DNA of 5,959 nucleotides from a virus. Below are positions 2,998 through 5,959 of the stretch, piece after piece (position 1 is the first letter of the stretch; each line of letters begins with the position of its first letter). The stretch lies in the IMG/VR virus record IMGVR_UViG_3300045988_005395, positions 1 through 5,959 of that record. One strand, written 5' to 3'. A program made the position numbers and the translations under genes. The notes below the pieces were generated by a model. The model was not told the DNA's origin and did no database searches. It saw nothing but the letters and a program-made list of their open reading frames with translations.

Positions 2998-3876
2998 ATG
3001 GGAGCATTAGCAACATTCGGACTCGGGCTACTCAAATCAGCATTACCAAGCCTAGTGGGAGCAGCAGCAAATAAACTGTTTGGAACAAGCTCAGGTTACG
3101 GACAGCAATCACAAGCAAACAGTCAGAGCAGCGGTTCAAGCTGGTCACAAGGCTCAAGCGACAGTGCAAGTTTCAGCAACGGCGGAACAAACGACGAGAT
3201 AAACAAAAACATTGCAGCACTAGCAAACCAGCTAAGCCAAGCAAGCATGGCCGGACAACAAAAATACAATCGCAACTCAATGCTAATGCAGATGGGGTAC
3301 AACACCTTATCGGCAATCCAGCAGGGTGTATACAATCACATCGAGCAGCAAACAGCCATGAGCTATAACAGCGCCGAAGCCGCAAAAAACAGAGCTTGGC
3401 AAGAGCAAATGAGTAACACAGCATACCAAAGAGCCGTCGAAGATATGCGAAAAGCAGGTATCAATCCTATCTTAGCATACACACAAGGCGGCGCAAGCAC
3501 TCCAAGCGGAGCACAAGGAACAATAGGCAGCGCAAGTATGGGCATGGCATCCAGCAGCGCACTGGGAGCAACAGCATTACCGGGCATCAAACAGGATGGC
3601 AGCTGGAGCAGTCATAGCGAAGCATGGAGTCACGCAGAAAACGCAGCACAGAGCATCCAGCAAGCTATCATGTCGAGCAGCTCAAACCCGGTAAGACTCA
3701 AAGGGGACATGGAGGACATAGCTGAAACAGCAGTGGAAAACGCGGCCAAACTGAAAGAAAAGTTCGCGGCCTTACCCGTAGCAGACAAAGCAAAGAAAGA
3801 GCTTGCGGGACAGTTCGAACAGGCAAGAAGGTACTTGCCCACAGGGTACATGAGTGTAAATCCAAGAGGTAAATAA
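2998..3876 (+). CDS. VP2: Minor capsid / DNA pilot protein VP2, 292 aa
   Basis: The N-terminus is hydrophobic and Gly/Ala-rich ([29 protein letters not shown]), followed by a Ser/Gln-rich linker. The block [29 protein letters not shown] matches the motif I recall as the hallmark of microvirus VP2 proteins. Confidence 0.88.
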
Positions 3877-4896
3877 ATGGGATGTAATAAACCGTTAATC
3901 CGGTTTTATGTACCTCATGACAGAGAGGCGAGTGGGCGAGTGTACTCACTCGCCTCTTTTAACGAGATACACAAGACCAAAATGACTTACGAAAATTTAA
4001 TGTACAGAAAAGATGTAATGTTGATACCATGCGGACAGTGTACCGGGTGCAGACTGCGCAAACGGAAAGATTGGAGCACACGAATGGAGCTAGAAGCATA
4101 TGGTCACGACAAAGAAAGCATCTGGTTTATAACGCTGACTTATGACGATGACCACGTACCAACACAGGACACGGAGACAGGCGAAATCTATAAAGGCGGC
4201 ATAAACATCTGGAAAGGCGTCTCAGAGCGTCCAAGAACGGCGCAAACGCTGAGCGTAGAAGATACCCAACTATTCATGAAAAGGCTCAGAAAGGCCATCA
4301 AAGAGCCTCTGAGATACTTTTTAGCGGGAGAGTACGGAGACAACACAGCGAGACCACACTATCACATGATACTATATGGATGGCATCCAGACGACTTAAA
4401 ACCAATCCACAAATTGTCAAGACACGGTCATTATACAAGTGATAAGTTGGTCAAAATCTGGGGACAAGGTACTGTGGACATAGCACAGGCAACACCGGAA
4501 ACATATAACTATGTTGCAGGGTATGTAACCAAAAAACTGTACGGCAACGACAAAAAGCGTTACCAAAAAATGGGTTTAGTACCACCATTTTGTACCATGA
4601 GCCGTAAGCCGGGACTCGGAGACAAGTGGTTTGAGGACAACCAAACACGACTCTGGCAGCAAGGGTACATACAGCTTACCAACGGCAAGAGAGCAGCCAT
4701 ACCAGAATACTATTGGAGAAAACTGGAAGCTGAAAACCCTGAAAAAGCATGGAGAATCAAGAAGTATCGGCAAGAGAAAGCTATCGCGTCCTTAATCGAA
4801 AGAAACGCGGAAACTGATAAACCATACGCAGAACAGTTAAAAGACAAAGAAACATCCATGTCGAAGAAGATGAGCAAAGCCAAAGGTGTATTTTGA
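3877..4896 (+). CDS. VP4: Replication initiation protein VP4 (HUH rolling-circle endonuclease, phiX174 gpA-like), 339 aa
   Basis: The N-terminus shows MGCNKPL and CGQCTGCRLRKRKDW. Motif 1 is FITLTYDD (from 4126). The HUH motif is PHYHMILYG, with H-Y-H at 4357..4365. The catalytic Y-x-x-x-Y-x-x-K-K is YVAGYVTKK (Tyr codons at 4510..4512 and 4522..4524). The ATG directly follows the VP2 TAA, with AGAGG at 3865..3869. Confidence 0.95.
   Translation: MGCNKPLIRFYVPHDREASGRVYSLASFNEIHKTKMTYENLMYRKDVMLIPCGQCTGCRLRKRKDWSTRMELEAYGHDKESIWFITLTYDDDHVPTQDTETGEIYKGGINIWKGVSERPRTAQTLSVEDTQLFMKRLRKAIKEPLRYFLAGEYGDNTARPHYHMILYGWHPDDLKPIHKLSRHGHYTSDKLVKIWGQGTVDIAQATPETYNYVAGYVTKKLYGNDKKRYQKMGLVPPFCTMSRKPGLGDKWFEDNQTRLWQQGYIQLTNGKRAAIPEYYWRKLEAENPEKAWRIKKYRQEKAIASLIERNAETDKPYAEQLKDKETSMSKKMSKAKGVF
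3924..3957 (+). other. Strong stem-loop with two alternative 5' arms inside the 5' end of VP4
   Basis: AGAGGCGAGTG (3924..3934) and the shorter GGCGAGTG (3935..3942) are both perfectly complementary to CACTCGCCTCT (3947..3957). TTTT follows at 3957..3960. Confidence 0.8.
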
Positions 4897-4907
4897 CACT
4901 TTGGTGT

Positions 4908-4956
4908 CACTCAGCCAAGTAACTATCAAGTAAGCTACTTGGCTGAGTGTTTTATT
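4908..4956 (+). terminator. Intrinsic terminator ending the main (structural plus Rep) transcription unit
   Basis: A perfect 14-bp stem pairs CACTCAGCCAAGTA (4908..4921) with TACTTGGCTGAGTG (4936..4949) around a 14-nt loop. TTTTATT follows at 4950..4956. It lies 12 nt after the VP4 stop. Confidence 0.8.
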
Positions 4957-4966
4957 GATTTGTTAA

Positions 4967-5008
4967 ATGCACACGCACGCGCACGTAATCGCGCACGCGC
5001 ACGTGCAT
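4967..5008. repeat. Two alternating purine-pyrimidine GC-rich tracts containing a 12-nt direct repeat
   Basis: ATGCACACGCACGCGCACGT (4967..4986) and CGCGCACGCGCACGTGCAT (4990..5008) alternate Pu/Py without interruption. GCACGCGCACGT occurs at 4975..4986 and 4993..5004. Confidence 0.9.
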
Positions 5009-5053
5009 TATATTATTATTATTATTATTAACTTGTTGTAGTAGTAGTAGTAG
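5007..5053. repeat. 47-nt tract in one continuous 3-nt register: pure A/T tract with (ATT)6, then AAC TTG TTG, then (TAG)5
   Basis: 5007..5031 contains no G or C. ATT x6 lies at 5012..5029 and TAG x5 at 5039..5053, in the same register. Confidence 0.95.
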
Positions 5054-5131
5054 GGAGTGTTGAAATGTTGAAAACTATGAATTTTTATCCTTGGAACGAT
5101 ATTTTTTGGTTAATTTTAATGTTGATACTTT

Positions 5132-5140
5132 TGTGGATAA
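5132..5140 (+). promoter_or_regulatory. Perfect consensus DnaA box (TGTGGATAA, the reverse complement of TTATCCACA)
   Basis: A 9/9 match to the E. coli / B. subtilis high-affinity DnaA box, read directly from the sequence. Confidence 0.8.
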
Positions 5141-5195
5141 CTTGTTGAATTGTTGAAAGTGTAGCAATATGCACAAAAACCTTTGTGCAACATTT

Positions 5196-5204
5196 TGTGG
5201 AAAA
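5196..5204 (+). promoter_or_regulatory. DnaA box variant (TGTGGAAAA, the reverse complement of TTTTCCACA)
   Basis: It matches 8/9 to the strict consensus and fits the relaxed consensus TTWTNCACA. It sits in a 21-nt unit (5193..5213) that is 19/21 identical to 5129..5149. Confidence 0.7.
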
Positions 5205-5351
5205 CCTGTTGAAAGTGTTGAAAGTGTTGAAAAAGAGAATAAAGGCCGTCCGACGAGCAAAACCGAAAAGTTACGTCATGCTCTTCGTACGGCGCACCGC
5301 GCCTAGCGCATGACCTTCAAGACAAAATTCTTCTAATTTTTTCAAAAAACC

Positions 5352-5380
5352 TTGACTTTTTACAAAAAAAATGATAGAAT
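5352..5380 (+). promoter_or_regulatory. Sigma-70/SigA-type promoter with extended -10, driving the two small downstream ORFs
   Basis: TTGACT (5352..5357), a 17-nt spacer and TAGAAT (5375..5380), with TG at 5372..5373. An A/T-rich UP-like tract lies at 5324..5350. A perfect TATAAT also occurs at 5380..5385. Confidence 0.75.
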
Positions 5381-5811: not shown

Positions 5812-5831
5812 CAAGCCTCTTTTTTTTTTTT
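5800..5831 (+). terminator. Intrinsic terminator of the small-ORF cassette
   Basis: GAGGCTT (5803..5809) pairs with AAGCCTC (5813..5819) around the loop GAC. The stem is extendable by A:T pairs to 10 bp (5800..5809 with 5813..5822). A 12-nt T-run (5820..5831) starts immediately after the core stem, and its first three T form those A:T pairs. Confidence 0.85.
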
Positions 5832-5836
5832 ATACT
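5808..5836 (+). promoter_or_regulatory. Main promoter overlapping the terminator; the -10 element is duplicated at 13..18 by the terminal redundancy
   Basis: Perfect -35 TTGACA (5808..5813), a 17-nt spacer made of the terminator 3' arm and T-tract, and -10 TATACT (5831..5836). The AGGAGG leader follows at 80..85 (5898..5903). Confidence 0.7.
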
Positions 5837-5959
5837 GAAAACAGTTAAACAGCACAAAAGTGCTTTTTTACAAAACCATTTATACAAAATAATTTTTAGG
5901 AGGTATGTGCTCTGACTCTCAAGGAAATTGACGCGCTGTTTAACAACATCCGCAAAATC
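5819..5959. repeat. Terminal redundancy, copy B (identical to 1..141)
   Basis: See copy A. Identical over all 141 nt by direct reading. Confidence 0.96.

Follow-up and report, generated by a model that had tools for sequence, protein, structure and literature searches.

A compact look-alike of a bacterial origin-opening module, probably recruiting host DnaA, in gut gokushoviruses

Organization of the cassette

The window, the whole 5,959-nt stretch analysed here, is the circular genome of a gokushovirus, a single-stranded DNA gut phage of 5.8 kb. The cassette lies in a 510-nt gap 3' of the replication gene VP4, between that gene and small ORFs. Read on the + strand, an A/T tract is followed by ACTTGTTG, five TAG triplets, a 4-nt spacer, a pair of boxes and eight further boxes that extend to position 5233. 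All ten boxes point in the same direction, and one of them is a perfect DnaA box, TGTGGATAA. The features of the gap are:

4908..4949, + strand: terminator-like hairpin 3' of the VP4 stop, with 17-nt arms and an invariant CTATCAAG in the loop (single-stranded DNA fold)
4966..5009, + strand: GC-rich palindrome of alternating purines and pyrimidines, outside the invertible cassette (inverted repeat and fold)
5007..5031, + strand: A/T-only tract of 25 nt, including ATT x6; candidate duplex unwinding element at the trio-distal end
5031..5041, + strand: phage-specific ACTTGTTGTAG, near-invariant, where the A/T tract meets the trios; overlaps the first TAG (conservation)
5039..5053, + strand: five TAG triplets of the DnaA-trio type (3'-GAT-5'), as read in the sequence
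5054..5057, + strand: 4-nt spacer GGAG, in the 'GC cluster' position
5058..5074, + strand: trio-proximal box pair, TGTTGAAA (5058–5065) and TGTTGAAAA (5066–5074), with an 8-nt offset
5120..5159, + strand: distal box cluster 1, comprising TGTTGATA at 5120, the perfect TGTGGATAA at 5132–5140, TGTTGAAT at 5143 and TGTTGAAAG at 5151
5170..5189, + strand: small hairpin TGCACAAA/TTTGTGCA between the distal clusters (inverted repeat)
5196..5233, + strand: distal box cluster 2, comprising TGTGGAAAA at 5196, TGTTGAAAG at 5207 and 5216, and TGTTGAAAA at 5225

The TAG tract is a perfect tandem repeat (period 3, 5.3 copies, 100%; Tandem Repeats Finder), preceded on the + strand by AACTTGTTG at 5030–5038. 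The opposite strand reads CTA x5 and so contains four TnnT motifs, the core of the DnaD recognition element (DRE). On the − strand the proximal boxes are ATTTCAACA and TTTTCAACA, with three and two mismatches to TTATCCACA, respectively; the perfect box at 5132–5140 reads TTATCCACA on this strand, and the box at 5196–5204 has a single mismatch to the DnaA box. Exact TGTTGAA is confined to the cassette, with all seven copies in the genome located within 5058–5231 on the + strand. Shuffled sequences contained a mean of 1.33 copies, and none of 200 reached seven.

An earlier note on this DNA had placed the A/T tract at 5007–5031, the TAG repeats at 5039–5053 and two boxes at 5058 and 5066 with an 8-nt offset, and the sequence agrees at each position. 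That stretch is only the left third of the element. The 'GGGAG' reported to follow the repeats does mark a spacer, but its first G belongs to the last TAG and the spacer is the 4-nt GGAG.

Comparison with chance and with BUS-type origins

The composite was defined by four elements: an A/T run of 10 nt or more, three or more TA[G/A] triplets, a spacer of 2–7 nt and two boxes positioned 8–9 nt apart, with at most two and at most three mismatches to TGTGGATAA. The window contains it once. None of 5000 dinucleotide shuffles of the genome or 5000 shuffles of the intergenic region alone, the type of control proposed in the earlier note, contains it. A search of 841 kb of bacterial DNA returned two matches, both of them dnaA–dnaN origins. 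Repeats are abundant in the region and contig ends often fall within it, so that low-complexity sequence arising by chance, a microsatellite or a chimeric assembly that includes host origin DNA might be suspected. This explanation was rejected, and its probability is negligible: the arrangement is absent from all 10,000 shuffles, triplet number and spacer are constant over at least 95 unique cores, and the module occupies the same locus in over 150 independent genomes, drawn from several studies and several countries.

By sequence, a bacterial basal unwinding system (BUS) is defined by a box with at most two mismatches to TTATCCACA or to the species-specific box, three or more consecutive NAN trios, and a distance from the better box to the first trio that does not exceed 16 bp and peaks at 10–13, within which an optional second box with at most four mismatches may lie; 3'-GAT-5' is the trio preferred beside the box (Pelliciari 2021, PMC8287927). 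In the phage, TTTTCAACA (the reverse complement of 5066–5074) has two mismatches and is also the commonest 9-mer in the origins of candidate hosts. It is separated from the five perfect TAG triplets (5039–5053) by 12 nt (5054–5065), composed of GGAG and the weaker 8-nt box ATTTCAACA with its three mismatches, and the A/T-only run of 25 nt (5007–5031) lies on the far side of the trios. A helicase-loading determinant in Firmicutes is the DRE, with at least two 5'-TnnT-3' motifs opposite the trios (Winterhalter 2023). The phage has four, which is weak evidence since such motifs arise automatically from TAG repeats. Judged on its sequence, the cassette matches the published BUS definition throughout.

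The order and strand polarity of the elements are those of the B. subtilis incC BUS (Richardson 2016; PMC6669920; PMC8287927). Both place a GAT trio beside the boxes, with 12–13 nt between the upstream box and the first trio, and both combine a proximal pair with a distal box subregion and carry TnnT (DRE) motifs on the opposite strand. Proximal and distal subregions are both required at incC (Richardson 2019, PMC6669920), and the phage has a proximal pair at 5058–5074 and distal clusters at 5120–5159 and 5196–5233. The B. subtilis trio sequence, which the earlier note had quoted, accords with PMC10201434, where the complementary strand is printed as 5'-CTACTATTACTTCTACTA-3' with boxes on the matching side. 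The phage cassette differs from the B. subtilis BUS in its box spelling (TTTTCAACA), in the insertion of ACTTGTTG, in the nearly uniform orientation of its boxes and, in most phage relatives, in a shorter A/T tract. A chromosomal oriC is the sole DnaA-dependent start site of its replicon and lies beside dnaA and dnaN. The phage site is found in a rolling-circle ssDNA genome of 5.8 kb, with VP4 on one side and small ORFs on the other, and so qualifies as an oriC-type module of a viral replicon but not as an oriC.

Conservation among related microviruses

The region is present in 56 GenBank phage records, in several of which it is the sole megablast match, and the module was found in at least 76 of 80 relatives picked by similarity of the VP1 capsid protein alone. 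The core remains near-invariant while VP4 identity drops to 43–56%. Across 95 unique cores, the nine positions upstream of TAACTTG are 98% A/T with free choice of base, the pattern expected if composition alone is constrained. The tract varies in length and sequence among relatives and is often only ~10–13 nt. Nearly all relatives have five triplets, and six are seen in a few. The fourth triplet is N[A/C]G, and the fifth and the three nearest the boxes scarcely vary. The relatives thus carry a fixed five-triplet tract with adjacent boxes, and not the length-variable microsatellite that the earlier note had considered as a contrary outcome. The spacer has the consensus (G/A)GNN. Its length is 4 nt in 16 of 16 BLAST-derived relatives and in six readable variant modules; it is also 4 nt in 66 tight VP1-selected matches, for which the search pattern fixed this length. 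The proximal box position is occupied by TGTTGAAA, TGTGGAAA or AGTGGAAA, distal cluster 1 is kept, and in many relatives the hairpin at 5170–5189 persists in the form ATGCACAAAnnnnTTTGTGCAAC. The trios, spacer and A/T tract are under more selection than binding alone would call for.

These constraints bear on the idea that the cassette is a DnaA sink that blocks host initiation after amplification of the replicative form (RF), or a site for DnaA-regulated phage transcription that would couple phage development to host growth, and does not start replication. With ~10 boxes per genome and a high RF copy number, a large share of DnaA could be bound. A promoter-like site is located ~120 nt downstream, and DnaA is described as a transcription factor (PMC8203912). 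Canonical TGTGGATAA arrays occur in at least 120 IMG/VR contigs, with one microvirus and one BUS composite among the matches listed; trio-less arrays are therefore common in viral contigs and boxes alone are unremarkable. A sink or regulatory site needs boxes only, however, which leaves the trios, the 4-nt spacer, the A/T composition and the co-orientation unexplained, and inversion of the cassette (see below) swaps the end that faces the promoter. We consider such a role improbable.

The near-invariant ACTTGTTGTAG has an information content of 1.5–2.0 bits per position in the 95 unique cores, and none of its positions was fixed by the search pattern used to gather them. It flips together with the cassette in inverted lineages, and it was not found in six host origins (see below) or in the distant lineage represented by L232 and L235. 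An alternative explanation of the cassette is DnaA-assisted rolling-circle initiation, where opening of the duplex would expose a single-stranded nick or recognition site for VP4, an HUH endonuclease, with no theta helicase loading. HUH endonucleases cut ssDNA, and protein A of phiX174 depends on melting or supercoiling of its origin, the core of which reads CAACTTG^ATA. A candidate site, ACTTG/TTGTAG, is found at the A/T–trio junction, where a DnaA filament would melt the DNA, and ACTTGTTGTAG scarcely changes in any lineage whose VP4 is 43–99% identical. Beyond AACTTG, however, the motif departs from the phiX174/pC194 consensus, and a better match to this consensus, CTTGATAG, is present in the loop of the 4908–4949 hairpin, outside the cassette. 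The nick would fall on the antisense strand in inverted lineages, and L232/L235 has the DnaA module without the motif. We know of no DnaA requirement in rolling-circle replicons, and phiX174 does without it. On balance DnaA-assisted nicking appears unlikely.

The L232/L235 lineage, with VP4 only 29% identical, is an independent lineage with the same layout: an A/T tract, TAG x5–6, GCAT and TGTGGAAATGTGGAAA. Its perfect TGTGGATAA boxes number four or five. By comparison, both the box cluster and a box-adjacent trio run are absent from SpV4, phiMH2K and Chp2, which indicates that the module is dispensable for the family as a whole. The perfect consensus boxes of L232/L235 also bear on whether the boxes could be iterons for the VP4 Rep, in the style of the pMV158 'bind' or of geminiviruses, or for VP5, with a coincidental likeness to DnaA boxes. 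Many rolling-circle and CRESS replicons do combine a nick site with Rep-bound direct repeats, and the small VP5 protein matches a PHROG family annotated as DNA-binding protein. Against this reading, the boxes stay constant across VP4 identities of 43–99%, and the same 9-mers in the same layout are found in dnaA–dnaN origins that have no microvirus genes. Iterons are thus a highly improbable explanation.

In L141, L218 and L244, and in the distant L232 and L235, five genomes that represent two lineages, the cassette has the reverse orientation relative to the genes. From the inverted copies in L218 and L244, we infer that distal cluster 2 forms the right-hand end of the invertible cassette. Inversion as a unit fits an element that acts on double-stranded DNA.

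The earlier note, reasoning that the trios lie on the coding strand, which is the one packaged, had favored assembly of DnaA on the incoming single strand, where it would prime the complementary strand. The phage needs some host route from single strand to duplex, and a DnaA-dependent 'ABC primosome' forms at hairpins with a DnaA box. The trios lie on the coding strand in 98 of 103 microviruses selected by pattern and in all 66 tight matches of the VP1-selected set. Known complementary-strand origins (the phiX174 PriA assembly site, G4 ori(c), sso elements of Gram-positive rolling-circle plasmids and the DnaA-box hairpin 'A site') work through the fold of a single strand. The phage cassette is like them in being noncoding DNA of a small ssDNA replicon that serves host factors, but it is found in either orientation, and its boxes are direct repeats (among the phages, 1335 lie on one strand and 14 on the opposite strand) with no complementary partner. 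The window contains no inverted box copies, and both minimum-energy and centroid folds of the + strand leave 5007–5125 unpaired, with no double-stranded box beside the trios. Filament loading requires double-stranded boxes next to the 5' trio tail (PMC8287927; PMC6669920). The conserved hairpins at 4908–4949, 4966–5009 and 5246–5315 are better candidates for a single-strand origin. A/T and G/C skews in the window, SpV4, phiMH2K and Chp2 gave no consistent pattern from which to assign the packaged strand. The inverted cassettes, the direct-repeat boxes and the unstructured 5007–5125 region make DnaA assembly on ssDNA very unlikely.

Similarity to chromosomal origins of gut Clostridia

Six MAGs of gut and rumen Clostridia (Oscillospiraceae and Ruminococcus; L017, L057, L064, L091, L130 and L136), among the matches listed, have the same layout with TGTTGAAA boxes in the dnaA–dnaN gap, and the flanking genes were confirmed as dnaA and dnaN. 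In the origin cores, an A/T tract adjoins a run of five or six triplets of the trio type, mostly TAG, which is followed by TGTTGAAAC TGTTGAAAA, and many further TGTTGAAA boxes are present. The spacer is G-rich and 3–5 nt long, with 4 nt in four of five readable cores (GGGG, GGTA or GGGC). The phage core at 5036–5076 is 84–92% identical over 37–40 nt to the origin cores of L091, L057, L064 and L130. The fourth base of the box is T in 81% and G in 19% of 1335 phage boxes, and T in 89% and G in 10% of 79 host-origin boxes; the top 9-mers are identical in the two sets. Based on its position and repetition, TGTTGAAAA would be the DnaA box of these Clostridia. Together with the BUS comparison, this agreement in order, polarity, spacing and spelling supports the suggestion in the earlier note that the phage carries a mimic or copy of a bacterial origin core.

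The Clostridia origins differ from the phage cassette in having a proximal box offset of 9 nt instead of 8 nt, more boxes, some of them inverted, and no ACTTGTTG, and the likeness is confined to the motifs. Recent capture is unsupported, as blastn of the intergenic region against the host origins recovered only the 37–40 nt core and individual boxes, which would fit either ancient capture or convergence. A prophage or integration relationship was rejected, since VP1, VP2 and VP4 are found in none of at least 120 bacterial TGTTGAA-array loci among the matches listed, and nothing points to the module as an attachment site.

Box spelling is also relevant to a possible role of Spo0A, whose 0A boxes (TGTCGAA) differ from TGTTGAA by one base. 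The likely hosts are spore-forming Clostridia, phi29 is silenced via Spo0A in sporulating hosts, and at the origin of B. subtilis the 0A and DnaA boxes overlap. However, C is found at the fourth position in none of the 1335 phage boxes, perfect DnaA consensus boxes are present, and the trios, spacer and A/T tract would be left unexplained. We give almost no credence to the boxes being Spo0A sites that silence the phage.

A proposed role in replication of the double-stranded form

The cassette departs from chance in its architecture, matches host origins, is conserved and occurs independently of orientation. Our comparisons show that this phage and well over 100 relatives carry a compact look-alike of the likely host's origin-opening module, which probably recruits host DnaA. 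The segment 5007–5233 is most likely a self-contained, chromosomal-origin-type cassette of ~230 nt that acts on the double-stranded RF. We are confident that it represents a DnaA-recognized, BUS-type unwinding module, where DnaA binding and unwinding are predicted from the motifs.

Host DnaA would bind the ~10 co-oriented boxes, which are spelled as in the origins of Oscillospiraceae/Ruminococcus-type Clostridia. Loaded at the proximal pair (5058–5074), a filament of ATP-DnaA is expected to form along the TAG triplets, all five of which lie on that same strand, and would melt them together with the ACTTGTTG motif and the A/T tract. The exposed CTA/TnnT strand could then recruit the Firmicutes helicase loaders DnaD, DnaB and DnaI. 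The resulting DnaA-dependent, theta-type copying of the RF may serve RF amplification, plasmid-like carriage or both, with the VP4 rolling-circle system making single strands for packaging. The full chain to helicase loading and theta-type replication is a tentative proposal, with chances that we place at or just under even. The earlier note had listed theta-type replication or plasmid-like RF carriage as an alternative, along with DnaA titration, and it is the alternative that we prefer.

Several points stand against this explanation. The box departs from consensus at position 6, which is a base-contact position in the DnaA box, and the A/T tract is short in many relatives. The theta model leaves the invariant ACTTGTTG, which host origins lack, without an explanation. 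Rolling-circle replicons are not known to require DnaA, and SpV4, phiMH2K and Chp2 lack the module. To our knowledge, the B. subtilis dnaA–dnaN region alone does not support autonomous plasmid replication.

The theta origins of pSC101, P1 (oriR), F, RK2 and R6K rely on their own iteron-binding initiator, with DnaA as an accessory factor. The phage shares with them the use of consensus-like boxes by a mobile replicon to draw on host DnaA. It differs in having no theta initiator, in repeats that are the host's own boxes and in the presence of a full trio-based core.

Replication of the Microviridae is described in textbooks as rolling-circle, driven by a phage-encoded nuclease and without a role for DnaA. 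We found no earlier description of such a module in literature on microviruses, phages, DnaA and hosts, in a search that lay mostly outside subscription journals. That a large and abundant clade of gut phages from humans and animals strongly conserves the cassette implies a second step in replication or persistence that would depend on the host initiator. If correct, this would help to explain the long-term stable carriage of gut microviruses, point to Oscillospiraceae/Ruminococcus-type Clostridia as likely hosts of these so far uncultured phages, yield a natural minimal origin (~230 bp) for use in bacteria without genetic tools and extend the BUS from chromosomes to a viral replicon. A more speculative extension, which we regard as rather doubtful, is that gut gokushoviruses are dual-mode replicons, with a DnaA-controlled RF minichromosome and a carrier state timed by the cell cycle, and VP4 rolling-circle replication only for virions. 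Box spelling would in that case report the host clade (Oscillospirales here, and a consensus-box host for L232/L235) and could serve as a sequence-only host predictor for uncultured Microviridae.

Elements flanking the cassette

The small ORFs flanking the region gave no informative Pfam or PHROG matches, and no Rfam family matched anywhere in the window. A distant blastn search of a plasmid database with 4950–5330 returned a single marginal and irrelevant match. The terminator-like hairpin at 4908–4949 occurs in at least 150 genomes as five covarying stem versions around one constant loop. Its orientation relative to the genes is unchanged where the cassette is inverted, which places it outside the invertible cassette. 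The palindrome at 4966..5009 is present in most but not all lineages and varies in sequence; it could form a cruciform or Z-DNA.

Extent and composition of the module

The window holds one circular gokushovirus genome of 5818 nt, read slightly past its own start, because positions 1–141 recur exactly at 5819–5959 as a 141-nt terminal redundancy. Every recognisable gene lies on the + strand. The origin-like module sits in the 510-nt non-coding gap between the VP4 stop (4896) and a promoter-like site. An earlier note had placed an unwinding core at 5007–5074, and sequence inspection and repeat searches located each of its elements there, but the true element is larger and includes a box array extending to 5233.

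Features of the window
near 413–768, +, VP5 and small basic protein
746–1255, +, scaffold/VP3-like protein
1252–2952, +, major capsid protein VP1
2998–3876, +, pilot protein VP2
3877–4896, +, replication initiator VP4
4908–4949, hairpin with T-rich tail just after the VP4 stop; stem variants covary in relatives
4966–5009, GC-rich imperfect palindrome of alternating purines and pyrimidines, CGCACGCGCACGT twice around TAAT
5007–5031, +, A/T-only run
5030–5038, +, AACTTGTTG
5039–5053, +, five TAG triplets
directly after the TAG triplets and ahead of 5058, +, 4-nt GGAG spacer
from 5058, +, box-like site TGTTGAAA
from 5066, +, box-like site TGTTGAAAA
5120, +, box TGTTGATA
5132–5140, perfect consensus DnaA box TGTGGATAA
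5196, +, box TGTGGAAAA
5246–5315, strongly conserved element; GTCATGCTCTTCGYACGGCGCACCGCGCCTANCGCATGAC nearly unchanged in 74 unique copies
5352–5380, promoter-like site TTGACT-17-TAGAAT

The genome contains seven exact copies of TGTTGAA, all on the + strand within 5058–5231, a number reached in none of 200 shuffles. Together with TGTTGATA, TGTGGATAA and TGTGGAAAA they form an array of ten co-oriented boxes. The arrangement of unwinding element, trios and boxes withstood comparison with chance: a composite in which an A/T run, three or more TA[G/A] triplets and a short spacer accompany two boxes appeared in 0/5000 shuffles of the genome and 0/5000 of the intergenic region. Bacterial DNA totalling 841 kb gave only two matches to it, each at a dnaA–dnaN origin.

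Published searches for the basal unwinding system (BUS) call for a box with at most two mismatches, three or more NAN trios and no more than 16 bp of spacer (peak 10–13), and allow a second box with up to four mismatches; GAT is favoured beside the box. The window agrees with all of these sequence criteria: its two boxes have 2 and 3 mismatches, five TAG triplets serve as trios and the spacer measures 12 nt. The single defining feature in which it departs is location, in a viral replicon rather than a chromosome. The proximal box pair and distal box subregion required by Bacillus subtilis incC are both present in the phage. The B. subtilis strand opposite the trios is printed as 5'-CTACTATTACTTCTACTA-3' with the boxes to its 5' side (PMC10201434), which bears out the trio sequence and shared polarity given in the note. 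The DnaD recognition element is defined as at least two TnnT motifs on the strand opposite the trios (PMC10201434); the phage has four, arising from CTA x5.

Conservation among microviruses

The region is common to 56 GenBank phage records, gokushoviruses except for a handful, from the faeces of humans, pigs, monkeys and dogs; for several of these relatives, 5118–5233 is the sole megablast-level similarity to the window. The 16 relatives that we fetched share one architecture: the post-VP4 hairpin, usually a GC-rich purine/pyrimidine-alternating palindrome, an A/T tract of varying length, AACTTGTTG and exactly five triplets (TAG-NNG-TAG-TAG/TAA-TAG). Next come a 4-nt spacer and a pair of boxes with an 8-nt offset, and a further ~50 nt lead to two more box clusters. 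A pattern scan of IMG/VR returned at least 120 contigs, and the 103 microviruses among the matches listed have VP1 38–88% and VP4 29–99% identical to those of the window. In an anchored logo of 95 unique cores, read at positions that the search pattern left free, TAACTTGTTGTAG and the trios carry 1.3–2.0 bits per position, and the fourth triplet is unconstrained. In the nine positions upstream, 98% of the bases are A or T and neither is preferred; such a composition-only constraint is the pattern expected of a melting element.

Among 80 genomes picked on VP1 similarity alone (54–93% identity), 66 have the tight pattern, six have slight variants and four are broken by a contig end inside the array; the remaining four contigs have no array, and three of these are clearly below full genome length. 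Since the module keeps its form across the 16 regions, the 95 cores and the VP1-picked genomes, the repeat tract is not the length-variable microsatellite that the note had considered. Several linear IMG/VR microvirus contigs (L268, L269, L310 and L314) start within the box array, marking the repeats as a place where assemblies often break. Metagenomic genomes may under-represent the module or contain it in truncated form.

We found no prior description of the module in the literature searched on microviruses, phages, DnaA and hosts. It is absent from the classical gokushoviruses SpV4, phiMH2K and Chp2, which may be why it was overlooked. Canonical DnaA-box arrays are frequent in viral contigs generally (at least 120 in IMG/VR); among the 120 listed, one is a microvirus and one has the full composite. 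Boxes by themselves are thus not unusual; what is unusual is that a rolling-circle ssDNA phage has the whole unwinding core. A Chp2-like microvirus contig of 4737 nt (L395; VP1 46% identical to that of Chp2) has three perfect TGTGGATAA boxes repeated in tandem every 11 nt and no visible adjoining trios. TAG-repeat and paired-box cores, each with further boxes nearby, also occur in three non-microvirus IMG/VR contigs: L176 (38 kb; 7920–8060), L200 (23.6 kb; 2030–2300, boxes spelled TGTTGAAA) and L376 (95 kb; ~5438, - strand; no dnaA or dnaN homologue in the stretch fetched). These contigs may represent misclassified bacterial DNA or further mobile elements that carry modules of the origin type.

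Relationship to Clostridia chromosomal origins

A scan for three close TGTTGAA copies covered one genome of each bacterial species; the matches listed, a lower bound, include no prophages. In at least six Clostridia MAGs the array is flanked by two genes, one ending ...EFGGRDHST... and the other beginning MKFICN..., which Pfam confirms as dnaA and dnaN. Of the six, three are Oscillospiraceae, one is a Ruminococcus, one is a 'Clostridiales' rumen genome and one is a Clostridia genome. The B. subtilis unwinding region likewise occupies the dnaA–dnaN intergenic region. In phage orientation, the origin core of one MAG (L091) reads aatataaatacag tag tag taa tag GGGG TGTTGAAAC TGTTGAAAA and that of another (L057) reads tatatag t tag tag tag tag tag GGTA TGTTGAAAC TGTGGAAAA; three more (L064, L130 and L136) have similar cores, and each MAG origin contains many additional TGTTGAAA boxes beyond the core.

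The box spectra also correspond. The fourth base is T in 81%, G in 19% and C in none of 1335 boxes from 140 phage modules, and T in 89% and G in 10% of 79 host-origin boxes; the commonest 9-mers are identical. Positions 5036–5076 are 84–92% identical to four host cores across 37–40 nt, and no alignment of the phage region to host origins was found outside the motifs. The module is therefore of host-origin type, as the note's idea of a mimic or captured bacterial core implied, but alignment confined to motifs gives no support for recent capture. That the boxes are iterons for a phage protein is unlikely, given that identical repeats populate host origins and stay constant as VP4 changes. Spo0A sites are also an unlikely identity, as TGTCGAA never occurs among the 1335 phage boxes.

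Position and repetition suggest that TGTTGAAAA is the DnaA box of these Clostridia. The DNA-binding helix of DnaA reads GGRDHST(I/V)VY(A/S/T) in five loci (L017, L057, L064, L091 and L130) whose adjoining origins are of the TGTTGAAA type. The same helix reads RDHTTV(L/I)HA in Escherichia coli and B. subtilis. The Thr-to-Ser and His-to-Tyr changes might be the cause of the altered box (TTTTCAACA).

Proposed mechanism and the form of DNA acted upon

In the mechanism that we propose, DnaA would bind the boxes on the replicative form (RF) and load a filament onto the TAG strand, melting the trios, ACTTGTTG and the A/T tract, and the host helicase would then be loaded. Initiation would be theta-type and DnaA-dependent, with VP4 rolling-circle synthesis kept for progeny single strands. 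The trios, the spacer length and the A/T composition are all under selection, which points to opening, not mere binding, as the selected activity and makes a role limited to titration or transcription less likely. In the main rival reading, DnaA opening would serve VP4 rather than theta initiation. This reading draws on ACTTGTTGTAG (5031–5041), an invariant, phage-specific sequence that is positioned exactly within the zone predicted to melt and resembles the 5' half of the phiX174 cleavage site. ACTTGTTGTAG is near-invariant in every lineage with VP4 43–99% identical, and is found neither in the host origins nor in a distant 4.7-kb microvirus lineage (L232 and L235). It may be a site for a phage-specific protein, perhaps VP4, inside the zone that DnaA would melt.

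The L232/L235 lineage (VP1 38%, VP4 29% identical to the window) has its own module on the strand opposite the genes (L232 ~390–565; L235 ~1290–1470, module orientation). This module comprises a 35-nt A/T-rich tract, five or six TAG triplets, GCAT, TGTGGAAATGTGGAAA and four or five perfect TGTGGATAA boxes, and lacks ACTTGTTG; origin-like modules with differing box spellings thus occur in at least two microvirus lineages. In three relatives with VP4 ~55% identical (L141, L218 and L244), the segment from the A/T tract through the last box is inverted as one unit, and the post-VP4 hairpin, GC palindrome and genes keep their orientation. Nearly all boxes are direct repeats (1335 on one strand versus 14 on the other), 5007–5125 is unpaired when the + strand is folded as DNA, and published BUS/incC work indicates that DnaA filament loading requires double-stranded boxes. 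Together these observations argue for action on the double-stranded RF and against the note's preferred idea, DnaA assembly on the incoming single strand.

Flanking conserved elements

The hairpin at 4908–4949 has an invariant loop sequence, CTATCAAG, and at least five covarying stem versions in >150 genomes. Its antisense reverse complement, CTTGATAG, matches the phiX174/pC194-type nick consensus CTTG^ATA. The hairpin could act as a terminator, as the rolling-circle nick site or as both; if nicking occurs here, the strand packaged by this clade may be the antisense one. In the L232 lineage, ACTTGATATAT forms a hairpin loop on the sense strand, and the + strand of SpV4 contains AAACTTGATAAG.

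The palindrome at 4966–5009, which is not moved by cassette inversion, might adopt a cruciform or Z-DNA structure. Most lineages have a version of it, variable in sequence; it is perfect in L006 and absent from the L010–L012 type. The 5246–5315 element has no Rfam match and may be a complementary-strand origin or a small RNA. A fold is predicted for it in ssDNA, and its small upstream hairpin has compensatory variants (CCGG...CCGG versus CGGC...GCCG). In other lineages its site is taken by one of two unrelated modules, the first in L007/L009/L016 and the second in L013–L015.
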